Made by a program: the position numbers and the translations under genes
Shown here: positions 5,429 to 63,832 of the stretch, one piece after another
Layout of the letters: the number at the start of each line of letters is the position of its first letter
How positions within the stretch are numbered: position 1 is the stretch's first letter
Source of the DNA: Gemmatimonadota bacterium
Lineage (GTDB): Bacteria > Gemmatimonadota > Gemmatimonadetes > Palauibacterales > Palauibacteraceae
DNA length: 64,000 nucleotides
Direction: 5' to 3'
NCBI GenBank assembly: GCA_020351855.1
Contig: CP070670.1
Location: forward strand, 1,170,294 to 1,234,293
The notes under the pieces: generated by a model
What the model was told of the DNA's origin: nothing
The model's input: the letters and a program-made list of their open reading frames with translations, nothing else
Database searches by the model: none

Positions 5429-5887
5429 TCAGCCGAGCCTCCGGTGCGTCCGGGTTTTCTCGATTTCGCGATCCCGGTGCTTGCCCCGCACCCGCCGCGT
5501 GGCCCTTGCCCCCCGCAGCAGGGAGGCGGTGCTGAGGAAGCTGCTCTCCGCCTCTTCCTGCACGACCTCCAGAAAGCCGCTGATCTCGGCCGTCCGGTCC
5601 CGCGCCGTGTCGATGATCACGTTGGCCGTTTCCGTCGCCCGGCGAACCGTCCGCCCCACCTCGTCCGCATCGCTGCGGAAGGCGGCGCTCAGGTAGTTGA
5701 CGTTTTCCGCCGCGTTCGTGAGCGTCGGTCGGAGCTCCTTGACGAGGGAGTGTAGCGTTTCGGAGCCCCGCAGCCACTGGCGCAGCTCCTTGAACGCCGG
5801 GATAGCAAACAGGACGAGCGCGATCACCGCGACGTTCAGCCCGATCGAGAGAATCAGGGCGACGGATTCAAGCACCTGGAGGTTCAC
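5429..5887 (-). CDS. DUF948-like small membrane protein (N-terminal TM helix plus coiled-coil), function unknown
   Basis: GTG start preceded by GAGGG. Product MNLQVLESVALILSIGLNVAVIALVLFAIPAFKELRQWLRGS... matches the YtxG/DUF948 architecture. It is the lone minus-strand gene in a plus-strand run, and its stop abuts the gatB stop (TGATCA). Confidence 0.55.
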   Translation of the reverse strand: MNLQVLESVALILSIGLNVAVIALVLFAIPAFKELRQWLRGSETLHSLVKELRPTLTNAAENVNYLSAAFRSDADEVGRTVRRATETANVIIDTARDRTAEISGFLEVVQEEAESSFLSTASLLRGARATRRVRGKHRDREIEKTRTHRRLG

Positions 5888-5920
5888 GGCTGCACCCTCA
5901 TGCCAAGGTAGAGGCTGACC

Positions 5921-5940
5921 CGCCGCGCCGCGCCGCGCCG
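5921..5940. repeat. Pentanucleotide microsatellite (CGCCG)x4 in the divergent DUF948/murA intergenic region
   Basis: CGCCGCGCCGCGCCGCGCCG is read directly; it lies about 35 nt upstream of the DUF948 GTG start on the opposite strand. Confidence 0.8.
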
Positions 5941-16574: not shown

Positions 16575-18662
16575 GTGCACAGACTTGAGAAGGAGTTTGC
16601 TGGGCGAACGCTCGTCATGGAGACGGGCAAGATGGCCAGGCAGGCGGACGGAGCGGTCTACATTCAGTATGGCGACAGCGCGGTTCTCGTGACGGCAGTC
16701 GCAGAACGGAAGCGTACGAGCCTGCCGTTCTTCCCCCTGACCGTAGAGTACCGCGAGAAGAGCTACGCGGCCGGGAAGTTCCCGGGCGGATTCATCAAGC
16801 GCGAGGGACGGCCCGGCGACAAGGAGATCGTCTCGGCGCGGCAGATCGATAGGCCCCTGCGGCCCCTGTTCCCCGATGACTACCGGAACGAGACGCAGGT
16901 CGCCTGCTTCGTGATCTCGGCCGACCAGGAGAACGATGCCGATGTACTGGGCATGCTGGGAGCCTCGACCGCTCTTACCCTCTCCCCGATTCCCTGGGAA
17001 GGGCCCATTGCCGGCGTCCGCGTCGGCCGCGTGGAGAACGAGTGGATCATCAACCCCACCTTCGAGGAGCTCGACTTCTCCGACATGGACATCGTCGTGG
17101 CCGGCAGCGAGGACTCGATCGTGATGGTCGAGGGCGCCGCGCTCGAGATCGCAGAGGATGAGTTCGTCGAAGCCCTGAACATCGCTCACGACGCAATTCG
17201 GGAGCTCATCGGCTTCCAGCGCGAGCTGGTCGAGCTGGTAGGCGGTCCCGTGCAGAAGTTCGATTACGAGGTGGCTCAGGTGCCGGAAGCCCTCGAGGAG
17301 GCCGTGGCGGAGAAGGCGGCCGAGGGCATCCGGGAGGCCCTGCTCATCGCCGACAAGGCGAAGCGTGAGGAGGCTCTCGTGGCCCTGCGCGAGGACACGG
17401 CCTCGGCGCTGGAGGAAGCTTACGGCGAAGAGGTCATTCGGGTGGGCGGTATCCTCCGCGATCTGGAGAAGCGGGAGATGCGCCGTCAGATCCTGGAGGA
17501 CGGCAGCCGAGTGGACGGCCGCGGCCTGGACGACATCCGGCCGATCACGGTCGATGTTTCCGTGCTGCCGCGGACGCACGGATCGGCCCTGTTCACCAGG
17601 GGTCAGACCCAGGCGCTGTGCGTCACGACGCTGGGCACGATCGACGACGAGCAGCGGATCGACTCGATCGACATGCGCGGAGAGACGTCGAAGTCGTTCA
17701 TGCTGCACTACAACTTCCCGCCTTTCTCGGTGGGAGAGGTACGAATGTTCCGCGGTCCGGGCCGGCGGGAGATCGGGCACGGCATGCTGGCGGAGAAGGC
17801 TCTGCAGCCCCTTCTGCCACCGTACGAGGAGTTCCCCTACACGATCCGCGTCGTCTCCGACATCCTCGAGTCCAATGGCTCGAGCTCAATGGCCACGGTA
17901 TGCGGCGGCTCCCTCGCCCTGATGGATGCCGGCGTCCCGATGCGGGCTCCGGTGGCGGGCATCGCCATGGGCCTCGTCAAGGAGGGCGAGCAGGTGGCCG
18001 TTCTGACCGACATCCTCGGCGTGGAGGATGCGCTGGGCGACATGGACTTCAAGGTTGCCGGGACCGGTCGGGGCATCACGGCGATCCAAATGGACATCAA
18101 GGCCAAGGGCCTCAGCGTGAACACGATGCGTGAGGCGCTCGAGCGGGCAAGGAACGCCCGACTGAGCATCCTCGAGATCATGGGTCAAACGCTGTCGGCG
18201 GCCAGAGAAGAGATGTCCGATTACGCGCCGCGCATCATCACCGTCCAGATCAATCCGGAGAAGATCGGAGAGGTCATCGGTCCGAAAGGGAAGACGATCC
18301 GGGGCATCGAGGAGAAGACGGGCGCGAAGCTCAACATCGAGGACACGGGCGTGGTCACGATCTCCGCGCTTTCGGGCGAAGTCGGCCGTGCCGCGCGCGA
18401 GCTGGTCGAGGCGATCGTCCAGGAGCCCGAGGTCGGCCGGATCTACGAGGGCGTCGTCAAGAACACAACGAGCTTCGGCGCGTTCGTGGAGATCATTCCG
18501 GGGGTCGAGGGCTTGTGTCACATATCCGAGCTGGAAGAGGGTCGCACGGAGCGCACCGAAGATGTCGTTCAGCCCGGTGACGTGGTACAAGTGAAGCTGC
18601 TCGCCATCGACGAGCGCGGTCGCCTCAAGCTCTCCAGGCGGGCCGCCATGAACGGCAACTAG
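16575..18662 (+). CDS. pnp: Polyribonucleotide nucleotidyltransferase (PNPase)
   Basis: Two RNase PH domains, then KH and S1 domains (ITVQINPEKIGEVIGPKGKTIRGI; GRIYEGVVKNTTSFGAFVEI). GTG start at 16575 follows AAGAGG; the ORF track begins at 16518. Confidence 0.95.
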   Translation: MHRLEKEFAGRTLVMETGKMARQADGAVYIQYGDSAVLVTAVAERKRTSLPFFPLTVEYREKSYAAGKFPGGFIKREGRPGDKEIVSARQIDRPLRPLFPDDYRNETQVACFVISADQENDADVLGMLGASTALTLSPIPWEGPIAGVRVGRVENEWIINPTFEELDFSDMDIVVAGSEDSIVMVEGAALEIAEDEFVEALNIAHDAIRELIGFQRELVELVGGPVQKFDYEVAQVPEALEEAVAEKAAEGIREALLIADKAKREEALVALREDTASALEEAYGEEVIRVGGILRDLEKREMRRQILEDGSRVDGRGLDDIRPITVDVSVLPRTHGSALFTRGQTQALCVTTLGTIDDEQRIDSIDMRGETSKSFMLHYNFPPFSVGEVRMFRGPGRREIGHGMLAEKALQPLLPPYEEFPYTIRVVSDILESNGSSSMATVCGGSLALMDAGVPMRAPVAGIAMGLVKEGEQVAVLTDILGVEDALGDMDFKVAGTGRGITAIQMDIKAKGLSVNTMREALERARNARLSILEIMGQTLSAAREEMSDYAPRIITVQINPEKIGEVIGPKGKTIRGIEEKTGAKLNIEDTGVVTISALSGEVGRAARELVEAIVQEPEVGRIYEGVVKNTTSFGAFVEIIPGVEGLCHISELEEGRTERTEDVVQPGDVVQVKLLAIDERGRLKLSRRAAMNGN

Positions 18663-44963: not shown

Positions 44964-47600
44964 ATGATACCGGCGGACAGGCTGACCGTGCGTGGCGCCG
45001 AGGCTCTTCAAGCTGCGGCCTCCCTGGCGCGGACGAGGGAGAACCCGGCGGTCGAGGACCTCCACCTGCTCGCGGCCCTGCTGAGTCAGGAGGGCGGGGT
45101 CGCGGCACCGATTCTCACGAAGACCGGAGTGGACCTCGCCGGCTTGCGGGGCGACCTCGAGCGGCGTCTCTCCCGGTTGCCCACGCAGTCCGGTGCGGCG
45201 CCGGTGGCGAGCCGCGAGCTGGGCCGAGTGCTGGACGACGCGGACGCGCTCGCCCGCACGATGAACGACCTCTACGTGGCGAGCGAGCACCTGCTGCTGG
45301 CGCTTGCGGGCAAGTCGGCGAGCAGCACCCGGGAGCTTCTGGGTGAGCGGGGCGCCGACCAGGACGCCGTTTCGCGCGCCATCGAGGAGGTTCGCGGCCC
45401 GCACCATGTCACGGACCAAGACCCGGAGGGCAAGTATCAGGCGCTCGAGCGCTATGGTGTCGATCTCACCGACCAGGCGCGCAGCGGCAAACTGGACCCC
45501 GTCATCGGACGGGACACGGAGATTCGTCGCGTGATGCAGGTCCTTTCCCGCCGTACCAAGAACAACCCCGTCCTCATCGGGGACCCCGGCGTGGGCAAGA
45601 CCGCGATCGTCGAAGGGCTCGCCCAGCGGATGGTGGAGGGCGACGTGCCGGAGTCGCTGCGCGACAAGCGGCTGATCCAGCTCGACATCGCGGCCATGCT
45701 GGCCGGTGCGAAGTATCGGGGCGAGTTCGAAGAGCGCCTCAAGGCGGCCCTGAAGGAGATCACCGAGTCTGGCGGGAAGTACGTGCTCTTCCTGGACGAG
45801 CTGCACACGATCGTGGGAGCGGGGGCGGCCGAGGGCGCGGTCGATGCCGGAAACATGCTGAAGCCGGCCCTCGCCCGCGGACAGCTCCGGATGATCGGGG
45901 CGACGACCCTGGACGAGTACCGCCAGCACATCGAGAAGGACCCCGCGTTGGAGCGACGGTTTCAACCGGTCGTCGTAGGCGAGCCGGGCCTCGAGGAGAC
46001 GATCGCGATCCTCCGCGGCCTGAAGGAGCGCTATGAGGTCCACCACGGCGTCCGCATTACGGATCCGGCGCTAGTCGCGGCCGCGCGCCTCTCGGATCGG
46101 TACATCGGCGATCGGTTCCTGCCCGATAAGGCGATCGACCTCATCGATGAGGCTGCGTCACGCCTCCGTATCGAGATCGACTCGATGCCCGAGGAGATCG
46201 ACGGCATCGAGCGACGTGTGACGCAGCTGGAGATCGAGCGTGAGGCCCTGAAGGAGGAGACGGACCCGCGCAGCCGAGAGCGGCTCGGGATCCTCGAAGG
46301 TGAGCTCTCCGAGCAGCGAGAGCGGCTGGCCGGCATGAAGTCGAGGTGGATCACCGAGAAGGAGGCGATCGAGCGGGTCCACAAGGTCAAGCGACAGATC
46401 GATGAAGCCAGCCTGGCGGCCGAGCAAGCCACTCGGGCAGGGGACTTGGCGCGGGCGGCAGAGATCTCGTACGGACAGGTCCCGAAGCTCCGCCAGCAGC
46501 TCGAGGAGGCGGGAGCGAAGCTGCAGGAGCTGCAGGCCGGGGGAAGCTACCTCAAGGAGGAGGTCACGGCCGAGGACGTGGCCGAGGTCGTGTCTTCCTG
46601 GACCGGCATTCCGGTCTCCCGAATGCTGGAGGATGAGAAGAGACGCCTGACCCACCTCGAGGATCATCTGCACCAGCGTGTCGTGGACCAGGAGGAGGCG
46701 ATCGGTGCCGTCGCCAACGCGGTGCGCCGGAGCCGGGCCGGCCTCCAGGATCCGAACCGGCCGATCGGCAGCTTCATCTTCCTGGGCCCAACGGGGGTGG
46801 GGAAGACGGAGACCGCCCGCGCTCTTGCCGAATTCCTGTTCGACGACGAGGACGCGATGGTGCGGATCGACATGTCCGAATACATGGAGCGGCACGCCGT
46901 GTCGCGGCTGATCGGAGCGCCCCCCGGGTACGTGGGCTACGAGCAGGGGGGGCAGCTTACGGAGCAGGTCCGACGGAGGCCCTATAGCGTCGTGCTTTTC
47001 GACGAGATCGAGAAGGCACACCCGGAGGTCTTCAACCTGCTCCTGCAAATCCTGGATGACGGCCGGCTCACGGACGGGCAGGGACGGACCGTGGGCTTCC
47101 GCAACACGGTCCTGATCATGACGAGCAACATCGGGAGCGCGCGGATCCTGCAGCAGACGGCGGCGGGGCGTGGCTGGGAGGCGGTGGAGAGTGAGGTTCG
47201 CGAGGCGATGCACGAGCACTTCAAGCCCGAGTTTCTCAACCGCATCGATGACATCCTCGTGTTCAAGCCCCTGAGCCGGGAGGATCTCGGACAGATCGTG
47301 GACCTGCAGCTCGGCCGGCTCCAGGGCAGCCTCCTGGAGCGCGATGTCCGTCTCGAGGTGACGCCCGAGGCGCGTCGGTTGATCGCCGACGCGGGATACG
47401 ACCCGGCTTTCGGAGCGAGGCCGCTGAAGCGAGCCATCCAGCGGCTGGTCGCGGATCCGCTGGCGATGGCGTTTCTGGAGGGCGTGTTCGAGGATGGCGA
47501 TACGGTGCGCGCCGACGCGCGTCCCGGGGAGGAGGCGCTCACCTTCGAGCGACTGGAGGCCGTGCCGGAGACGGTCGGGGTCGAGACCGGATCCGCTTGA
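44964..47600 (+). CDS. clpB: Chaperone ClpB (AAA+ disaggregase)
   Basis: Two AAA modules ([15 protein letters not shown]; [17 protein letters not shown]), middle coiled-coil domain and Clp N domain. The ATG at 44964 is preferred over the GTG at 44961 given by the ORF track. Confidence 0.95.
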
Positions 47601-51918: not shown

Positions 51919-54657
51919 TTGGATTTCCGCATGGCCTCCGTTAAACTCCCCCGAACCGCTGCCGCCGAAGAACCGTTCCGGACGAAGACCACCGTGAGCC
52001 AGACGCTCGACCCAAGATACGACCCGACCGGGATCGAAGCCCCGCTGTACCGACGGTGGGAAGAGGCCGGACTGTTCCACGTGCCGGCTCGGGAGGTGAA
52101 GCGTCCCTACGTGATCTCCATTCCTCCGCCGAACGTGACCGGCGCTCTGCACATGGGACACGGCCTGAACCATACGATCCAGGACGTCCTGATCCGGTGG
52201 CGTCGGATGCAGGGCTACGATGCGGTGTGGGTGCCAGGCACGGACCACGCCGGAATCGCGACGCAGAATGTCGTGGAGCGCGAGCTTCAGGAGGAAGGCC
52301 TGACGCGCTGGGATCTCGGTCGGGAGGCCTTCGTCGAGCGCGTGTGGGACTGGGTGGATCAGTACGGCGGACGGATTCTCGAGCAGCAACGGGCGATCGG
52401 CGACTCCTGCGACTGGGAGCGGACCCGGTTCACGCTGGATGAGGGTCTCTCCCAGGCGGTTCGGGAGGTGTTCGTCCGACTGTACTCCAGAGGTCTGGTC
52501 TATCGAGGCGAGTACATCATCAATTGGTGTCCACGCTGCCGAACCGCCCTCGCCAACGAGGAGGTGGAGCACAGGGAGGAGGCTGGAAAGCTCTATCACG
52601 TCCACTATCCTTCCGCGGATGGAGAGCCCGGTCTGGTGGTCGCCACCACCCGGCCGGAGACGATGCTCGGGGACACCGCGGTCGCGGTTCATCCGGATGA
52701 TCCCCGCCACGCTTCACGCATCGGCCGCGATCTTCTCCTGCCACTGGTGGGCCGCCCTCTGCCCGTGATCGCCGACGACTACGTAGACCTCGAGTTCGGG
52801 ACGGGAGCTCTGAAGGTCACGCCCGCCCACGATCCCAACGACTTCGAGATCGGCGAACGGCACGAGCTTCCGCGCGTCAACATTCTGGAGGCCGACGGGT
52901 CCCTCTCGGCGGAAGCCCCGGAGGCGTACCGTGGCCTCGACCGCTTCGAAGCCCGGGAGCGGATCGTGCGAGATCTGGAGGCCGAAGGTTTCCTGGTGAA
53001 GGTCGAGGATCACCTTCACGCGGTGGGGCACTGCTACCGCTGCGACACGGTCGTGGAGCCCTGGTTGAGCGAGCAGTGGTTCGTGCGCATGAAGCCGCTC
53101 GCGGAGCCCGGTCTGGCGGCATACCGGGAGGGTCGGCTGCGTTTCCATCCAGAGCATTTCGGCCGCAAGTACGAGCACTGGATGGAGAACATTCGGGACT
53201 GGTGCATCAGCCGCCAGCTCTGGTGGGGGCACCGGATCCCCGTCTGGTATTGCGAGGCGTGCGGTTCCGAGATGGTGGCGCGCGAGGAGCCCGCCGAGTG
53301 CTCGAAGTGCGGTGGAGACCTGAGCCAGGATCCCGACGTGCTGGACACCTGGTTCAGCTCTGCGCTGTGGCCGTTCAGCACGGTCGGCTGGCCCGAGGAG
53401 ACCCCCGATCTCGGCGTGCTGTATCCTACCGACACGTTGGTGACGGCCTCCGAGATCATCTTCTTCTGGGTGGCCCGGATGGTGATGATGGGGCTCGAGT
53501 TCATGGGGGAGCTACCCTTCACGGATGTCGTGATCAACGGGACCGTTCGAGACCACCTGGGCCGCAGAATGGCCAAGTCCCTCGGGAACGGCATCGATCC
53601 GCTGGAGGTCGTGCAGCGGTACGGCGCCGACGCGATGCGGTACACGTTGCTGAACGGCGCCGCGATGGGAACCGATCTGCAGCTCAACTACCAGGACCTC
53701 GATGCCGCATTTGCGGTCGGGCGCAACTTCGCCAACAAGATCTGGAACGCGGCGCGCTTCGCGCTCCCCTACCTGAGGGAAGAGGACCTCGTCGCCGATC
53801 CGGAGGCTCTGGATCGGGAGTTGGCCGATCGTTGGATCCTCAGTCGCTTCCGCCGGACCACCTCGGAAATGACGGAGGCGCTTCAGGCCTACCGGCTGCA
53901 CGATGCGGCGGCAGCTGTATACCGGTTCGGCTGGGGCGAGCTGGCCGACTGGTACATCGAGCTCGTCAAGGCTAGGCTGGCCGGAGAGCGGGGCGAGCGG
54001 AGCCGCGACGCGGCCGCCGCGACGCTTGCGCACGTACTCGACGGTTGGATGCGCCTCCTCCACCCCATCATGCCTTTCATATCGGAGGCGATCGCCATCA
54101 GGCTCCCGGGTCGAGGGGAGACCGACACGATCGTTCGGGGGCCGTGGCCGCAGCCGCCGGCATCGTGGGATGATCCTGCCGCCGAGCAGGCCTTCGCCGC
54201 CCTGCAGGAACTGGTCGGACAGGTTCGGAACCTCCGATCCGAGTATGGGATCGACCCGGGTCGTGAGGTGAAGGTCTTCGTGCGCGAGGTTCCGCCGCCG
54301 CTCGCGGAAGCGCTGCGTGCCGAAGAGCAGGGAGCCTCGAGGCTGGCGCGGGCCGCGTTCGAGGAAGCCGATGGGCTCCCCGCGGAGCCGGGCGCGCACG
54401 CCGTACTGCAGTCCGGGGGCGAGTTGTTTCTCCCTCTCGCCGACCTCTTGGACCTGGATCGCGAGCTCGCGAGACTGGCGAAAGAGCTGGACCGCCTGGA
54501 TGGAATCCTCGCCGGCACGCGGGCCCGATTAGACAGTCCCGCCTTTCTCGACAAGGCTCCGGCAGAAGTCGTGGAGCGCGAGCGCGAAAAGGCGAGATCG
54601 CTCGAAGAGAGACGCGAGCGCCTCATCGAGAAGAGACGGGCCCTGGGAGAGGGCTAA
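51919..54657 (+). CDS. valS: Valyl-tRNA synthetase
   Basis: HIGH-region PPPNVTGALHMGHG, KMSKS variant KMAKSLGN, and a C-terminal coiled-coil. The true start may be the ATG at 51931. Confidence 0.95.
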   Translation: MDFRMASVKLPRTAAAEEPFRTKTTVSQTLDPRYDPTGIEAPLYRRWEEAGLFHVPAREVKRPYVISIPPPNVTGALHMGHGLNHTIQDVLIRWRRMQGYDAVWVPGTDHAGIATQNVVERELQEEGLTRWDLGREAFVERVWDWVDQYGGRILEQQRAIGDSCDWERTRFTLDEGLSQAVREVFVRLYSRGLVYRGEYIINWCPRCRTALANEEVEHREEAGKLYHVHYPSADGEPGLVVATTRPETMLGDTAVAVHPDDPRHASRIGRDLLLPLVGRPLPVIADDYVDLEFGTGALKVTPAHDPNDFEIGERHELPRVNILEADGSLSAEAPEAYRGLDRFEARERIVRDLEAEGFLVKVEDHLHAVGHCYRCDTVVEPWLSEQWFVRMKPLAEPGLAAYREGRLRFHPEHFGRKYEHWMENIRDWCISRQLWWGHRIPVWYCEACGSEMVAREEPAECSKCGGDLSQDPDVLDTWFSSALWPFSTVGWPEETPDLGVLYPTDTLVTASEIIFFWVARMVMMGLEFMGELPFTDVVINGTVRDHLGRRMAKSLGNGIDPLEVVQRYGADAMRYTLLNGAAMGTDLQLNYQDLDAAFAVGRNFANKIWNAARFALPYLREEDLVADPEALDRELADRWILSRFRRTTSEMTEALQAYRLHDAAAAVYRFGWGELADWYIELVKARLAGERGERSRDAAAATLAHVLDGWMRLLHPIMPFISEAIAIRLPGRGETDTIVRGPWPQPPASWDDPAAEQAFAALQELVGQVRNLRSEYGIDPGREVKVFVREVPPPLAEALRAEEQGASRLARAAFEEADGLPAEPGAHAVLQSGGELFLPLADLLDLDRELARLAKELDRLDGILAGTRARLDSPAFLDKAPAEVVEREREKARSLEERRERLIEKRRALGEG

Positions 54658-54665
54658 CCGATCCT

Positions 54666-55994
54666 GTGCCGGAAGCATCCCGTCGCCGTTGGATGAGGCT
54701 CGTTAGAGTCGGCACCGAGGGCCTCCCGACCGTGGCGCTCCTCGCTGCGGCCGTGGCCGGCATGGCATGCGCCCGGGAGGAGCCGCCGCCCGGTACCCGT
54801 CCGGACCGCACGCCGCCGGGGGTCCGCGTGCTGAAGCCGGACAAGTTCGCCGTGGTTCCGGGCTTCGGTGGGAGTGCCGAAGTCCAGTTCGATGAGCCGA
54901 TCAGCGGGGCACGTGGCCTGCAGCAACGCGTCGTCGCTTCCCCGGCCGGGCGATACGAGATCTCGGCCGGCTTTTCCAACCTGAAGATCCGGCCGACCGA
55001 CGGCTGGGGTGATGGAATCGTCTATCACATCAGGATTCCCGAAGGCATCGCGGACCTCCTCGGCAACCGCACCCAGGGACCGATCGACCTCGTATTCTCG
55101 ACGGGTCCGGAGATCTCGAGCACTCGGGTAACGGGCGATGTGCGCCGCCGGGTGGACGGCAATGCCGTGACATCGGGGAGGGTGACCCTCCTGAACGTGG
55201 CCGGCGATTCGATTCCCTACAGTGCGCCGACCGAGTCGGATGGCAGCTTCGAGCTCTCGTACGCCCCTGCTGATGATTACTGGTCGTTCGCCTTTCAGGA
55301 CCTGAACGGCAACTTCGTGCTCGACCGCATGTTCGAACCCTACGACAGCGCCCGTCTGGAGCTTCTCGCGGATGGCCGGGTCGAGCGATCCTTTCGCATC
55401 GTCGAACCCGATACGACACCGCCCATCCTCGGCCGCATCGAGGTCGTCGACACGCTCTCGCTCGAGCTGGAGTTCGACGACTATCTGGACCCGACGCAGG
55501 ATTTTGGTGCGGCCGGGCTCGAGATCCGGCAGCTGGACAGTGGGCGTCGTATCGAGATCGAGGCGGTCACGCTGAGCGAAGCGATACGCGGCCGCGCCGC
55601 CGGCACACCCGGCGCCAGAGTGCGGCCGGACACGCTGCCCGAGGCGGCGCCGGACACGCTGCCCGAGGCGGCGCCGGACACGCTGCCCGAGGCGGCGCCG
55701 GACACGTTGCCCGAGGCGGCGCCGGACACGCTGCCCGAGGCGGCTGAGCCGCCGCCCGAAGAGGTGTTGCCTTCCCAGATGCTGCTCGTGCGCCTGGCCT
55801 CTCCGCTCGGAGAGGGAAGATATGGGATCTCGATGGATCGAGTAGTCAACCTGCGGCAGCTCGCGGCCGCCATCGACACGGTCTTCGCCTACCCGCAGGA
55901 AGCCCCGCCTGCGCCGCTGGAGGGCGAGGGGGAGGCGAGCGAGCCGGCGGATTCTGTGGGTGGTGACGTGCCCCCGCGTGGTGGGGTGCGGTGA
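54666..55994 (+). CDS. Secreted protein or lipoprotein with a carboxypeptidase-regulatory-like/Ig-like beta domain and a 5x PDTLPEAA tandem repeat
   Basis: Signal peptide (LPTVALLAAAVAGMAC), then a CarboxypepD_reg-like segment (VTGDVRRRVDGNAVTSGRVTLLNVAGDSIPYSAPTESDGSFELSYAP), then five in-frame 8-aa repeats. The stop overlaps the selA start. Confidence 0.55.
   Translation: MPEASRRRWMRLVRVGTEGLPTVALLAAAVAGMACAREEPPPGTRPDRTPPGVRVLKPDKFAVVPGFGGSAEVQFDEPISGARGLQQRVVASPAGRYEISAGFSNLKIRPTDGWGDGIVYHIRIPEGIADLLGNRTQGPIDLVFSTGPEISSTRVTGDVRRRVDGNAVTSGRVTLLNVAGDSIPYSAPTESDGSFELSYAPADDYWSFAFQDLNGNFVLDRMFEPYDSARLELLADGRVERSFRIVEPDTTPPILGRIEVVDTLSLELEFDDYLDPTQDFGAAGLEIRQLDSGRRIEIEAVTLSEAIRGRAAGTPGARVRPDTLPEAAPDTLPEAAPDTLPEAAPDTLPEAAPDTLPEAAEPPPEEVLPSQMLLVRLASPLGEGRYGISMDRVVNLRQLAAAIDTVFAYPQEAPPAPLEGEGEASEPADSVGGDVPPRGGVR
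55626..55745 (+). repeat. 24-bp tandem repeat x5 (CCGGACACGCTGCCCGAGGCGGCG), coding and in frame
   Basis: Five head-to-tail copies with a single C-to-T variant in copy 4 and a terminal G-to-T in copy 5. It encodes (PDTLPEAA)5 within the 54666-55994 ORF. Confidence 0.9.
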
Positions 55995-57367
55995 CAGACC
56001 TCCGGAGGCGGATTCCGTCCGTTGACCGGCTGTTGGCCGACGAGCGGGCCGTCGAGTGGTCTTGCCGGTACGGCCGGGACGTCGTGAGGAACGCCCTGCG
56101 GGACGCCATCGGGAGACAGCGGATCCTGGCCGTCGAAGGAACGGCGATGCCGGACGCCGGGTCGATTCTGGAGGAGACCGAGGCCCGGCTTCGGGAACGA
56201 GCGAGGCCGGGGCTACGCCGCGTGTTGAATGGGACGGGGGTCGTCCTGCATACCAACCTGGGCCGCGCCCCGCTGCCCGAGGAGGCACTGGCCGCGCTGC
56301 GGTCGATCGCGCGCGGGTACTGCAACCTGGAGTTCGATCTGGGAGGCGGGGAGCGGGGAAGCCGTCATGATCACTGCAGTGCTCTCCTACGGGAGCTGAC
56401 CGGATCGGAGGCCGCTCTCGTCGTCAACAACAACGCGGCCGCCGTGGCGCTCGTGGTGAACGAGTTCGCGCAGGGACGCGAGGTCATCGTGTCGCGCGGT
56501 GAGCTGGTGGAGATCGGAGGTTCATTCCGGGTCCCGGAGCTCGTTGAGCGAGCCGGCGGCCGGCTGGTGGAGGTGGGGACCACGAACCGAACTCGGATCA
56601 CGGACTATCGACGGGCGATCGGCGACCGCACCGGTCTCATCCTGAAGGTCCATCCGTCAAACTACCGGATCCACGGCTTCGTGGAGGAGGTGGCACTGGA
56701 AGAGCTCGCAGAGCTCGGTCACAGCCACGGGCTGCCCGTGGCAAACGACCTCGGTTCGGGTCTGCTTCTCGGTCACCTGCTACCGCTTCTGCCGGCCGAA
56801 CCCGCTCCGCGCGATGCCGCAGCCGCCGGAGCGGCCGTCGTCACCTGGAGCGGCGACAAGCTGCTGGGCGGCCCGCAAGCCGGTGTGATACATGGTACGG
56901 AGGCGGCGGTCGCCCGCCTTCGAGGGAACCCGCTTCTGCGAGCCTTCCGCGTCGACAAGCTCACGATCGCGGCCCTCGAGGCCACGCTGCGCCTTCACGC
57001 GAACCCGGAGGCGGCCGCCGACCGGATTCCGGCCGTCGCGATGCTGCGCGAGCCCGCCGCGTCGGTACGCGCACGGGCGACGGCAGCGCTTTCCCATTGT
57101 CCAGCCGTGGTCGAGCAGGGACTCGAGGTGCGCCCGCTGGAATCGCTGGTCGGTGGCGGGGCCTATCCGGAAGTGGTGCTCGAGTCGGCCGGCTGGGCCT
57201 CTGCCGGCCGATCCGCCGGGCTTCTCGAGGAACGCTGCCGCGCCGCGGACCCCCCTCTCATCGGCAGGATCGAAGGCGATGCGTTCTGCATCGACTTCAG
57301 GACGATCCGGCCCGGCGAAGAGCGAGACGTCGCCTCGATCGTGACGCGAGCCTGGGGGCCGTCATGA
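55991..57367 (+). CDS. selA: L-seryl-tRNA(Sec) selenium transferase (selenocysteine synthase)
   Basis: Aligns with E. coli SelA along its length (VLHTNLGRAPL; LEFDLGGGERGSRHDHCSALLRELTGSEAALVVNNNAAAV; VVSRGELVEIGGSFRVPE; PLP-lysine region SGDKLLGGPQAGVIHG; KLTIAALEATLRLH). Confidence 0.9.
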   Translation: MTDLRRRIPSVDRLLADERAVEWSCRYGRDVVRNALRDAIGRQRILAVEGTAMPDAGSILEETEARLRERARPGLRRVLNGTGVVLHTNLGRAPLPEEALAALRSIARGYCNLEFDLGGGERGSRHDHCSALLRELTGSEAALVVNNNAAAVALVVNEFAQGREVIVSRGELVEIGGSFRVPELVERAGGRLVEVGTTNRTRITDYRRAIGDRTGLILKVHPSNYRIHGFVEEVALEELAELGHSHGLPVANDLGSGLLLGHLLPLLPAEPAPRDAAAAGAAVVTWSGDKLLGGPQAGVIHGTEAAVARLRGNPLLRAFRVDKLTIAALEATLRLHANPEAAADRIPAVAMLREPAASVRARATAALSHCPAVVEQGLEVRPLESLVGGGAYPEVVLESAGWASAGRSAGLLEERCRAADPPLIGRIEGDAFCIDFRTIRPGEERDVASIVTRAWGPS

Positions 57368-59715: not shown

Positions 59716-60843
59716 TTGACGACCTCGCGAAGGCCACCTACTGTCTGTCCCTCGCGAATCTTTCGGCTCCACCCAACAGTGACAGATCACGACGATATGA
59801 CCGACGGGCGCCCTCGGCTCCCGGGCCGACGACGACAGCTCGCATTCGCGGCGCTTGCCCTGGCCGCGCTGTTCGTCGCCTGTGGCGGTGACTTCCCGCA
59901 GTCCTCCCTGCGTCCACAATCGGACGTGGCGCGGGAGATCGACTCGCTGTTCCGCGGCATCTTCTGGTGGGCGATGGGTGTGCTCGTCGTGGTGGAGGGC
60001 GCGCTGCTGTTCACGGTATTCCGCTATCGGGAGCGGCCCGGCGCCGCCCGGCCGAAGGCGGTGCATGGCAACACCGTGCTGGAGATCGGGTGGACGATCG
60101 CCCCGGCCGTGATCCTCATCTTCATCGGCGTTCCCACCATGCTGACCCTCTGGCGCATCGATGGGCCGCCGCCCAGCTCGGATGTTCGAGTGGAGGTCGT
60201 GGGGCACCAGTGGTGGTGGGAGTTCCGCTACCCGGATCTCGGCATCACGACGGCCAACGAGCTCCACCTTCCCGTGGGGAAGACCGCCGACGTCAGACTC
60301 CGTTCCGGCGATGTCCTGCACAGCTTCTGGTTTCCGCGGGTATCGGGGAAGAGGGATCTCGTGCCAGGAAGGGAAAACAGTCTCTGGTTCACGCCGGACT
60401 CGGTGGGCGTCTATCCGGGTCAGTGTGCCGAGTTCTGCGGGACCTCGCACGCCCTGATGGGCATGCGCCTGTTCGTCGACTCTCCCGAGGACTTCGAGGC
60501 TTGGGCCGCTCGGCAGGCGAGCCCCCAGGAGGCGGAGGGAGACCCGGCTCCGGCCGAGGATCCGATGGTCACGGCCGGGCGGGAGATCTTCTTCGGTGCC
60601 GGCGGCTGTATCTCGTGCCACGCGATCCGCGGCACGGTGGCGGCCGGCGTGATCGGGCCCGACCTCACGCATGTGGGCAGCCGGAGCACGATCGCTGCGG
60701 GGCTCCTCGAGAACACGCCGGAGAATCTGGCCAAATGGATCATGGATCCGCAGGAGGTGAAGCCAGGTAACCTCATGCTGGACATGGGTTTGAATGACGA
60801 ACAGGCCGGCCAGGTGGCGGCCTATCTCCTGAGTCTCGAGTAG
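59716..60843 (+). CDS. ctaC: Cytochrome c oxidase subunit II with fused C-terminal cytochrome c domain (caa3-type)
   Basis: CuA centre H...CAEFCGTSHALM and a C-terminal haem-c motif GGCISCHAI. The probable real start is the internal ATG at about 59797, before the signal/TM segment. Confidence 0.88.
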   Translation: MTTSRRPPTVCPSRIFRLHPTVTDHDDMTDGRPRLPGRRRQLAFAALALAALFVACGGDFPQSSLRPQSDVAREIDSLFRGIFWWAMGVLVVVEGALLFTVFRYRERPGAARPKAVHGNTVLEIGWTIAPAVILIFIGVPTMLTLWRIDGPPPSSDVRVEVVGHQWWWEFRYPDLGITTANELHLPVGKTADVRLRSGDVLHSFWFPRVSGKRDLVPGRENSLWFTPDSVGVYPGQCAEFCGTSHALMGMRLFVDSPEDFEAWAARQASPQEAEGDPAPAEDPMVTAGREIFFGAGGCISCHAIRGTVAAGVIGPDLTHVGSRSTIAAGLLENTPENLAKWIMDPQEVKPGNLMLDMGLNDEQAGQVAAYLLSLE

Positions 60844-60848
60844 CGGCT

Positions 60849-62609
60849 ATGGGAACGTACTCCGGAGGCCTGTGGAGCTGGATCACGACCGTCGACCACA
60901 AGCGGATCGGGATCCTCTACTTCGTGTCCTCTCTGTTCTTCTTCCTGGTCGGCGGCATCGAGGCGATGCTCATCCGGCTGCAGCTGGCGACGCCCGAGAA
61001 CACCCTCCTCACCGCTCAGGCCTACAACCAGCTGTTCACGATGCACGGCATCACGATGCTCCTGTTCGTGGTCATGCCGATGAGTGCCGCCTTCTTCAAC
61101 TTCGTCGTGCCGCTGCAGATCGGGGCGCGCGACGTCGCGTTCCCTCGCCTCAACGCCTTCAGCTACTGGCTCTTCATCTTCGGTGCGCTCTTCCTGAACG
61201 CCAGCTTCTTTTTCGGTGGCGCGCCCGACGTGGGCTGGTTCGCCTACGCGAACCTCACGTCCAGCCAGTACTCTCCGGGACACGGGGTGGACTTCTACAT
61301 CCTCGGGCTGGCACTGGCCGGCGCGGGATCCATCGTGGCGGCGCTGAACTTCATCGTGACGATCATCAACCTGAGGGCGCCGGGGATGACGTTCATGCGG
61401 CTTCCCCTCTTCACGTGGATGACGTTCGTCGTCTCCTTCCTCATCATCCTGGCCTTTCCGCCCTTCACGATCAGCACGGTATTCCTCCTCTTCGACCGGA
61501 TGTTCGGCACGCTGTTCTTCGAGCCGTCCGGGGGCGGCGACCCGCGCCTCTGGCAGCACCTGTTCTGGATCTTCGGTCATCCGGAGGTCTACATCCTGAT
61601 CTTGCCCGCTTTCGGCATTGTCTCGGATGTGATCCCGACCTTCTCCAAGAAGCCCCTGTTCGGCTATCCGGTGGTCGTGTATTCGGGCGTGCTGATCGCC
61701 TTCCTGGGCTTCGGCGTGTGGGCACACCACATGTTCTCCGTCGGGCTCGGCCGGATTGCCAACTCGGCATTCAGCGGACTCACCATGCTGATCGCGATCC
61801 CGACGGGCGTGAAGATCTTCAACTGGATCGCGACGATGTGGGGAGGGGCGCTACGCTTCAAATCCGCGATGCTCTTCAGCATCGGCCTCGTCGCCATGTT
61901 CGTGATCGGGGGCGTGAGCGGCGTGATGCACTCGTCGGCCCCGGCCGACCTCCAGCAGACCGACACGTACTTCGTCGTGGCGCACTTCCACTACGTGCTC
62001 TTCGGAGGCAGCATCTTGGGGCTGTTCGCGGGCGTGTACTACTGGTTCCCGAAGGTTACAGGGCGCTTCCTGAACGAACCGCTGGGTGCCGTCCACTTCT
62101 GGCTGATGTTCATCGGGATGAACCTCACCTTCTTCCCGATGCACTACGCGGGACTACACGGTCAGCCGCGCCGGACCTTCACGTCCCCGGCCGGACTCGG
62201 ATTCGAGTGGTTCAACGTGGTCTCGACCATCGGGGCGGTGATCACCTTCGTGGCCGTTTTCGTCTTCCTCGTGAACTTCATCCGGAGTCTGAGGACGGCG
62301 CCGACGGCCGAGGCGAACCCCTGGGAGGCATCGACCCTCGAGTGGAGCATCGCGTCGCCTCCGCCCGTCCATAACTTCGACCGCACGCCGGAAGTGCGGA
62401 GCCGGGATCCGCTGTGGCACGATGGGATCGTCCTCCCGGCCGCCGAGGAGGTGTTCCACATGCCGAACCCATCCTACTGGCCGCTGGTGACGGCAGCGGG
62501 CCTCCTCGTGCTCATGACGGGTGCGCTGGTCGGTCTTCCGCTCGTGCTGATCGGCGGGGCCGTCGCGGTGGTGGGGATCTACGGCTGGTCGTTCGAGCCG
62601 ATTCACTGA
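60849..62609 (+). CDS. ctaD: Cytochrome c oxidase subunit I
   Basis: 12-TM haem-copper oxidase subunit I ([20 protein letters not shown], HHMF... His ligands). Confidence 0.95.
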   Translation: [586 protein letters not shown]

Positions 62610-62661
62610 CGGGTACCGCGAGGGAGGTTACTTGACGATCGAAGGAAGGATGTAGCCGACG

Positions 62662-63243
62662 TTGGAACGCACGAGCACCGGGGTTGCCAACGAGAAGGTG
62701 CTGATGTGGACGTTCATCGGCTCCGAATGCATGCTCTTCGGATCCTTGATCGCCACCTTCCTGGCCTACCGCGACCGCAGCCTGGTCGGACCGTTCGAGG
62801 AGGAGCTGCTCAACATCCCGTTCATCACGGTCACGACCTTCGTTCTCCTGATGAGCAGCCTGATGATGGTGCTGGCCCTGTCGGCGGTTCAGCGGGGAGA
62901 CCGACGCGGGAGCGGCCTGTTCCTGCTCCTCACGGCCGTGTTGGGTCTGATCTTCCTGGGCGGACAGGTCTTCGAGTTCTCGCACTTCGCCCACGAGGGA
63001 CTGGGCCTCGGCAGGAACCTGTTTTCCGGTACCTTCTACCTTACTACGGGCTTCCACGGCGCTCACGTGGCCATCGGGGTGATCTGGCTTCTGACCCTCT
63101 GGACCCTTGCGCTTCGGGGACGTCTGGGGCCGGAAAAATCCGTCAAAGTCGAGGTGGCAGGTCTATACTGGCACTTCGTGGATGTCGTGTGGATCGTCCT
63201 CTTCACGGTGATCTACCTGATGTCCGGCGCGGCGGCAGTCTAG
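62662..63243 (+). CDS. ctaE: Cytochrome c oxidase subunit III
   Basis: FYLTTGFHGAHVAIGVIWLLTLW and YWHFVDVVWIVLFTVIY are typical of subunit III. TTG start per the ORF track; an ATG at 62704 is an alternative. Confidence 0.85.
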   Translation: MERTSTGVANEKVLMWTFIGSECMLFGSLIATFLAYRDRSLVGPFEEELLNIPFITVTTFVLLMSSLMMVLALSAVQRGDRRGSGLFLLLTAVLGLIFLGGQVFEFSHFAHEGLGLGRNLFSGTFYLTTGFHGAHVAIGVIWLLTLWTLALRGRLGPEKSVKVEVAGLYWHFVDVVWIVLFTVIYLMSGAAAV

Positions 63244-63267
63244 CCGGCGGAGAGAGGAGCGAATCCG

Positions 63268-63354
63268 ATGGCGAGTGAGTTGGCGCACGGATCCGACCGA
63301 GGCGGCGTGGAGGTGGCGGCGACGCATGGGGCCCATCTAGATCCGAATGCCTAG
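63268..63354 (+). CDS. Short ORF with a strong RBS, in frame with ctaF and separated from it by a single TAG; possible N-terminal segment of subunit IV
   Basis: GGAGAGAGGAG lies 6 nt before the ATG at 63268. It encodes MASELAHGSDRGGVEVAATHGAHLDPNA, then a TAG at 63352-63354. The same frame continues SRTY-V(GTG at 63367)AIALVLG... Confidence 0.3.
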   Translation: MASELAHGSDRGGVEVAATHGAHLDPNA

Positions 63355-63366
63355 AGTCGGACCTAC

Positions 63367-63612
63367 GTGGCGATCGCGCTTGTTCTGGGCGTTATCACGG
63401 CGCTCGAGGTCATGGTGTTCTACGTCGAAGCCCTCGCGCCCGTGCTCGTCCCGCTGCTCCTCGTGCTCTCGGGGGCCAAGTTCGTTCTCGTCGTCGGCTT
63501 CTACATGCACCTCAAGTACGACACGAGTCTCAGGGGCCTTTTCGTGGGACCGCTGGCGATAGCCGCTGCGATCATCCTGGCGATCATGGCGCTGTACGGG
63601 TACTTCCTGTAG
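63367..63612 (+). CDS. ctaF: Cytochrome c oxidase subunit IV, bacterial caa3/aa3-type small subunit
   Basis: An 81-aa, two-TM product carrying FYMHLKYD, the hallmark of prokaryotic CoxIV, and the last gene of the ctaCDEF cluster. GTG start with no obvious RBS of its own. Confidence 0.75.
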   Translation: MAIALVLGVITALEVMVFYVEALAPVLVPLLLVLSGAKFVLVVGFYMHLKYDTSLRGLFVGPLAIAAAIILAIMALYGYFL

Positions 63613-63673: not shown

Positions 63674-63832
63674 TCAGCACGTCTCGGCGAACACCGCGAG
63701 CGCAGCCGTGAGGGCCGCTCCGAGGAGCACGGCCTGGAGCTGCCACTCCCCGCGACGCTGACGCGCTCGGCAGTGCGGACAGCGGTGGGCGTGGTCCGGG
63801 ATCATCACCTCGCAGCCCCTGCAGACCTTCAT
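63674..63832 (-). CDS. Hypothetical small zinc-ribbon membrane protein (52 aa)
   Basis: MKVCRGCEVMIPDHAHRCPHCRARQRRGEWQLQAVLLGAALTAALAVFAETC has a CxxC...CxxC motif followed by a C-terminal TM helix. AGGAGG lies 9 nt upstream. Convergent with ctaF. Confidence 0.45.
   Translation of the reverse strand: MKVCRGCEVMIPDHAHRCPHCRARQRRGEWQLQAVLLGAALTAALAVFAETC

Follow-up and report, generated by a model that had tools for sequence, protein, structure and literature searches.

The in-frame TAG at codon 29 of ctaF, which encodes a cytochrome c oxidase subunit IV, is very probably a sporadic one-base nonsense mutation or an assembly error in an ordinary gene of 114 codons, and not a programmed element. 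The window analyzed here is the whole stretch of 64,000 nucleotides in which this gene lies. As we reconstruct it, the real ctaF frame comprises 114 codons, from ATG 63268, behind a strong Shine-Dalgarno (SD) sequence, to the TAG at 63610-63612; a single C>A change at 63353 has turned the conserved Ser29 codon TCG into TAG, in this assembly only. The two forms that this explanation can take, namely a genuine recent nonsense allele and a consensus error in the deposited assembly, appear to us about equally probable.

ctaF is the last gene of a caa3-type operon, coxII-coxI-coxIII-ctaF, in a marine Gemmatimonadota MAG. The operon spans 59716-63612, and the same gene order is found on the related contigs L001-L010. 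The features of the operon and of the ctaF locus are the following.

59716..60843, + strand: coxII with a C-terminal cytochrome c domain (caa3-type); Pfam COX2_TM, COX2 and Cytochrom_C; stop TAG
60849..62609, + strand: coxI, 586 aa; Pfam COX1, E = 3.5e-161
62662..63243, + strand: coxIII, 193 aa; Pfam COX3; stop TAG at 63241-63243
63249..63259, + strand: Shine-Dalgarno-like GGAGAGAGGAG, 8 nt before the true ctaF start at ATG 63268
63268..63612, + strand: ancestral full-length ctaF, 114 codons, COX4_pro; broken at codon 29 in this assembly
63268..63354, + strand: N-terminal fragment plus TAG; 28 codons, translation MASELAHGSDRGGVEVAATHGAHLDPNA
63355..63366, + strand: bridging codons AGT CGG ACC TAC (S-R-T-Y), in no ORF of this assembly
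63367..63612, + strand: GTG ORF, 81 codons, stop TAG at 63610-63612
63412..63612, + strand: ATG ORF, 66 codons; its product is P0121 (UCG77073.1)

On the near-identical contig L001, JGI calls coxII from the position that corresponds to 59797. The coxIII product of the window has an exact copy on seven other contigs.

In the window sequence, ATG 63268, the TAG at 63352-63354, GTG 63367 and the stop at 63610-63612 share one common frame. An earlier note on this DNA had described an SD-equipped ATG in frame with ctaF across a TAG, and a GTG without a Shine-Dalgarno sequence of its own. All elements of the first description are present at these coordinates, and GTG 63367 is preceded by nothing that resembles GGAGG. 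The note had also taken GTG 63367 as the annotated start of ctaF; here it has to be corrected, as the public annotation appears to be the 66-aa product from ATG 63412. In NCBI, the corresponding entry is UCG77073.1, a 'cytochrome C oxidase subunit IV family protein' of 66 aa that equals the window ORF from ATG 63412.

The oxidase subunit IV family COX4_pro (Pfam PF03626) includes CtaF and QoxD of B. subtilis and CyoD of E. coli. In the window, the COX4_pro domain lies entirely within the 81-aa ORF, with profile positions 2-71 of 72 matched. The 81-aa ORF scores 41.8 bits and the read-through product 40.8 bits (gathering cut-off, 28.9 bits). Hydropathy analysis (Kyte-Doolittle, 19-residue window) yields three hydrophobic blocks in the 114-aa form, at residues of about 31-53, 56-80 and 88-114, which we take as predicted transmembrane (TM) segments. 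The 66-aa product of ATG 63412 is without the first 16 of the approximately 21 residues of TM1. Thus, in its score, in its three predicted TM segments and in its location directly 3′ of coxIII, the window ctaF is like other prokaryotic genes for oxidase subunit IV; unlike them, its ORF is broken by a TAG at codon 29. An ORF that runs unbroken from the conserved start to its stop, as is usual in the family, is present on 13 near-identical contigs and in eight related species, and the window copy is thus a disrupted or mis-assembled member of COX4_pro.

The translation across the TAG, in which X stands for the stop codon, was compared with a large protein collection. This query gave 363 matches, the top twenty of which are continuous proteins of 106-116 aa in which ~100% of the query is aligned. 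The best match, P0001, has 114 aa and is 97% identical to the read-through product; identity to annotated Gemmatimonadota 'cytochrome c oxidase subunit 4' proteins ranges from 72 to 97%. In COX4_pro proteins of 112-116 aa, which are continuous, the N-terminus is homologous to the 28 codons before the TAG plus the four that bridge the gap to the GTG; the frame shared by the upstream ORF and ctaF is therefore not coincidental. Apparent short homologues are either fragments on short contigs or gene-calling artefacts. One of them, P0107 (83 aa), was checked and is an artefact: its DNA contains the in-frame upstream ATG, the SD and the N-terminal motif.

In an alignment of 32 sequences, reaching Binataceae and Chloroflexota, the TAG column sits inside the motif P-H-A-S-[S/N]-R-T-Y, directly before TM1. 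His27, Arg31 and Thr32 are each conserved in at least 90% of these sequences and Tyr33 is invariant, and the S-R-T-Y codons at 63355..63366 constitute the best conserved stretch of the N-terminal motif. Of the 120 best homologues, 113 have a more relaxed pattern, H-x-[S/T/G]-x-x-[T/F/V/S/L]-Y, ahead of TM1. The His-x-Ser-x-Arg-Thr-Tyr motif that is conserved in the clade directly before TM1 is not part of the COX4_pro model. The earlier note had proposed to align the read-through product with its homologues; this check reveals a sense codon at the TAG position, mostly for Ser (89 Ser, 17 Thr and 7 Gly among the 113 motif-bearing sequences of the 120 best homologues). It had also reasoned that homologues starting at the GTG, without a conserved upstream segment, would speak for a coincidental upstream ORF. 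The homologues do carry the upstream segment, and it is conserved.

Genes for P0001 are present on at least 24 metagenome contigs. An alignment of ten P0001 loci (nine distinct contigs) with the window at the DNA level was extended with further loci found through the exact coxIII product, to a comparison set of 15 loci; these lie on 13 distinct contigs and stem from 12 or more samples (JGI, ENA, Logan). These near-identical contigs share 99.4-99.7% of their nucleotides with the window, and all 15 loci (13 distinct contigs) have TCG, for Ser, opposite the window TAG at 63352-63354. The eight closest species-level genomes, which are Gemmatimonadales and Gemmatimonadota MAGs with 72-83% amino-acid identity, also have TCG at this codon without exception, and their preceding His codon is CAC or CAT. 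A GGAG-type SD is found before the ctaF ATG in five of the six related species with enough upstream sequence. Seven of the eight closest species have an Ile codon, ATC or ATA, at the position equivalent to GTG 63367, which is thus an internal Val/Ile codon and no conserved start. Among the options that the earlier note had offered, that of a gene of about 114 aa with either a sequencing error or a nonsense mutation is the one strongly supported, both by the continuous homologues and by the Ser TCG in 13 contigs and eight species.

The TAG is in the deposited assembly, since the 66-aa NCBI product matches the window and NCBI is not among the sources of P0001. For both ClpB and ValS of the window, NCBI has a 100% identical protein, from a contig named 'MAG: Gemmatimonadota bacterium'. 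Look-ups of exact products (the 81-aa and 66-aa products and the NCBI ClpB) found no independent contig with the TAG allele: the 81-aa product and the NCBI ClpB have no exact record in the contig index, and the 66-aa product is known only from one NCBI contig, itself outside this index. An IUPAC pattern for both alleles gave 0 matches in genome and metagenome contig collections from which the species is absent, so that the wild type went unmatched as well. As a separate observation, the accessions UCG76784.1 (ValS, 51919-54657) and UCG77073.1 (66-aa CtaF) are 289 apart and their genes about 9 kb apart; either the accession order is not positional in the record, or the linkage differs.

A further comparison concerned the substitutions that are private to the window. 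There are eight such positions in the 8.3 kb covered by at least three comparators: two are synonymous changes in selA, one is in CoxI and five are in ctaF. The five in ctaF lie within 187 bp, and only 3 are found in the remaining ~8.1 kb. The private changes in coxI and ctaF are the following.

62184-62186, + strand: coxI codon 446, TAC>TCC at 62185, Tyr446>Ser; window-private, with TAC in 11 of 11 covering loci
63342, + strand: G>T, Glu25>Asp; window-private
63346, + strand: C>A, conserved His27>Asn; window-private
63353, + strand: C>A, Ser29 TCG>TAG; window-private
63393, + strand: G>T, GTG>GTT, Val42, synonymous; window-private
63528, + strand: C>T, AGC>AGT, Ser87, synonymous; window-private

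Positions 63342, 63346 and 63353 fall within 12 nt (63342..63353), and G, C and C are found there in all 15 covering loci; in the alignment, the replacement residues Asp and Asn are seen in none of the homologues at these sites. Every one of the five ctaF changes is G:C>A:T, and four of the five are G:C>T:A. Between the window and contig L107, 53 differences are distributed evenly over 22 kb, and only 13 of them are of the G:C<>T:A class, counting both directions. In an alignment with solved CoxI chains, Tyr446 falls on the conserved Tyr of their PRRxxDYP motif, and the change of Tyr446 to Ser is likely a second deleterious private change in the operon.

Two results limit what can be made of this pattern. 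Compared with about 28 kb of independent contigs, the window shows no indels except one in-frame difference of 48 nt; with so few indels, base quality looks good, which argues against random error. Moreover, clustering alone is no proof of an artefact, because a natural variant tract occurs elsewhere: in the ENA contig L109, a 270-bp stretch of clpB (5651-5921, corresponding to 45149-45419 of the window) contains 13 private substitutions, of mixed type, and looks like a recombination tract. The one-directional spectrum, the changes at conserved residues and the occurrence of the allele in a single assembly are compatible with damage or a consensus error, and also with a very recent cluster of deleterious mutations.

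The 48-nt in-frame length difference lies at 55697-55751, between the window and L107, in a gene with a Big_5 domain upstream of selA. The region is repeat-like, with GCCGGACACG... present twice, which suggests tandem-repeat copy-number variation.

Two specific sources of the cluster were considered and rejected. An ectopic donor or template switch finds no counterpart, as a search of the window for another copy of the mutated 20-mer, with 3 mismatches allowed, gave none. Long-read miscalls at methylated motifs or restriction sites do not account for the changes either, as another CTCGAG (at about 63403) and several nearby GATC sites are unchanged. Four of the five private changes do lie in wild-type palindromes, namely GCATGC, CTCGAG, CGTGATCACG and CCTCAGG. 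The ancestral sequence, as seen in L001-L010, has TCTAGA, GCATGC and CTCGAG within 22 nt, and the 10-bp palindrome CGTGATCACG 40 nt further on (63335-63358 and 63389-63398).

If the change is genuine, it might be part of a wider process, in which the caa3 operon is decaying in this strain under relaxed selection and ctaF has only recently become a pseudogene. Such decay would be a special case of the nonsense-or-error explanation rather than a competitor, and we regard it as rather unlikely. The final 1.35 kb of the operon does hold seven of the nine private or near-private changes in the 8.3 kb, and four of those seven are non-synonymous at conserved sites (CoxI Tyr446>Ser; CtaF Glu25>Asp, His27>Asn and Ser29>stop). 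However, coxII and the first 1.3 kb of coxI are free of private changes, and the coxIII product is identical to that on 7 other contigs. Neutral decay, furthermore, would not give three changes in 12 nt or a single mutational class; a local mutational or sequencing event fits the pattern better than decay that depends on time.

A control for the sporadic nature of such stops is provided by L107/L001, a 35-kb JGI contig from the same population, in which ctaF is intact. In codon 120 of the essential gene valS, this contig has a private change (G>T) from GAG to TAG, at 16922-16924, which corresponds to 52276-52278 of the window. valS is intact in the window, and a 908-aa ValS is intact on another JGI contig; the split ValS (115 + 771 aa) is found on the single contig L107 only. 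For the valS TAG of L107, an assembly error or a rare allele is the most likely origin. It shows that sporadic ambers confined to one assembly occur among the assemblies of this population, even in an essential gene. The GC content of the genome is 68%. TCG and GAG, both common in a high-GC genome, are each one G:C>T:A step from TAG, and sporadic in-frame ambers are thus to be expected in high-GC MAGs. In-frame ambers in MAGs, in turn, should not be read as recoding unless they are shared by relatives. In all these respects, i.e., a one-step change, in one assembly, with other private G:C>A:T changes around it and a sister lesion in valS, the window ctaF is like an ordinary MAG nonsense polymorphism, young pseudogene or consensus error, and no difference distinguishes it from them.

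The earlier note had also raised programmed readthrough or recoding of the TAG, by an amber suppressor tRNA, pyrrolysine or the sequence context, from which a full-length 114-aa subunit IV would result. The coding frame is indeed conserved across the stop, as it would be in pyrrolysine decoding or amber suppression, and the upstream start has a strong SD; the second in-frame TAG, in the essential valS of the sister assembly, could hint at amber tolerance in the lineage. Even so, we consider recoding very improbable: the TAG is private to one assembly, with Ser TCG in 13 near-identical contigs and eight related species. The valS TAG is likewise found on a single contig, and the two TAGs stand for different amino acids, Ser in ctaF and Glu in valS. 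Pyrrolysine decoding of UAG is known from genes of the mtmB/mttB type; in the window, by contrast, the TAG is not conserved in orthologues, the ancestral residue is Ser and TAG is a common true stop.

The use of TAG as a regular stop is apparent throughout the window. Of the 42 ORFs that show a coding signature in the form of high GC3, 30 have TGA as their stop, 10 have TAG and 2 have TAA; TAG is thus used by about a quarter, including coxII, coxIII, ctaF, infB and a gene for an M16 peptidase. Three of the four cox genes are in this group. Both infB and the M16 peptidase gene encode complete Pfam domains, end in TAG and are followed by separate genes (DUF503, alanine dehydrogenase). A window-wide screen for other in-frame stops flanked by a coding signature flagged only true gene junctions on the + strand, and its flags on the - strand are antisense shadows of + strand genes; this screen is too crude for short cases, as it missed ctaF itself.

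Further elements of a recoding system were sought in the window. ARAGORN detects no tRNA genes in the 64 kb, and the window likewise shows no pyl genes. A stretch of 121 nt that takes in the TAG and the sequence behind it folds no more stably than its shuffled versions (z = +0.58). Programmed readthrough would be marked by a conserved stop and, 3′ of it, a conserved stimulatory context or structure; this stop is not conserved, and no stable structure follows it. The sequence 3′ of the TAG is identical in all relatives, where it follows a sense codon, and it cannot, therefore, have evolved as a readthrough signal. The earlier note had pointed to selA as a sign that this organism recodes stop codons. 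The gene is indeed in the window, at 55991-57367, with a Pfam SelA match on the identical product. Selenocysteine is specified by UGA together with a SECIS element, however, with no bearing on UAG; the pointer concerns TGA and selenocysteine, and the codon in ctaF is TAG.

A related idea is that the TAG is a true allele tolerated in this marine Gemmatimonadota population, through a weak suppressor tRNA or efficient reinitiation. If true, such a capacity to bypass ambers would explain the private in-frame TAGs in two assemblies, in ctaF and in valS, respectively. We judge the chance of this to be very small, on a par with that of recoding.

Least probable of all is an evolved two-ORF architecture, the leader-ORF option of the earlier note, in which a 28-aa leader would be coupled by termination-reinitiation to an 81-aa subunit IV from GTG 63367: although only 12 nt separate the stop from a GTG that is without its own SD and so has the look of a coupled restart, and although the whole Pfam domain is inside the 81-aa ORF, the stop and with it the two-ORF arrangement are absent from every relative, the restart codon is ATC or ATA in seven of the eight closest species, R31, T32 and Y33, the best conserved N-terminal residues, fall in the untranslated gap, and the apparent short homologues are gene-calling artefacts or short-contig fragments. 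By comparison of these sequences, the layout appears already refuted as an evolved feature; it would survive only as an accidental consequence, and at most as an accidental rescue route, if the TAG is real.

For a sporadic nonsense allele, the consequences can be outlined. If the TAG is real, ribosomes that start at the SD-equipped ATG would release a 28-aa peptide, and the membrane part would be made only via inefficient reinitiation, at GTG 63367, to give 81 aa, or at ATG 63412, to give 66 aa. The longer of these two forms would retain the Pfam domain and the three TM segments, and would lose His27, Arg31, Thr32 and Tyr33. With release of the short peptide and such inefficient reinitiation, the allele would most likely be hypomorphic or null. 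CyoD, the subunit IV of the related bo3 oxidase of E. coli, is reported to assist the assembly of the catalytic subunit. A real TAG would probably impair the oxidase.

As it stands, the deposited genome appears to hold a truncated subunit IV of 66 aa, compared with 114 aa in relatives, and the locus should be flagged as disrupted. The gene family is a known one and the disruption is of an ordinary one-base kind, with no new biology unless the improbable amber-tolerance reading is true.

Two further observations concern the surroundings of ctaF. The C-terminal extension of CoxI (residues 531-583, window 62439-62609) gives a sub-threshold match to Cyt_c_ox_IV (PF12270), with 24.6 bits against a cut-off of 26.9. 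Cyt_c_ox_IV is the family of actinobacterial-type subunit IV, and the oxidase may have a fused subunit-IV-like helix pair in CoxI besides the separate COX4_pro gene.

Just 3′ of ctaF there is also a small conserved ORF on the - strand, at window 63674-63832, which has no Pfam match. It is called as a 52-aa protein on all related contigs with enough downstream sequence (L001-L010 and L021-L023). Its product has a CxxC...CxxC arrangement and a hydrophobic tail (…CRGCEVMIPDHAHRCPHCRARQRRGEWQLQAVLLGAALTAALAVFAETC), and it may be a membrane-anchored mini-protein with a zinc ribbon.
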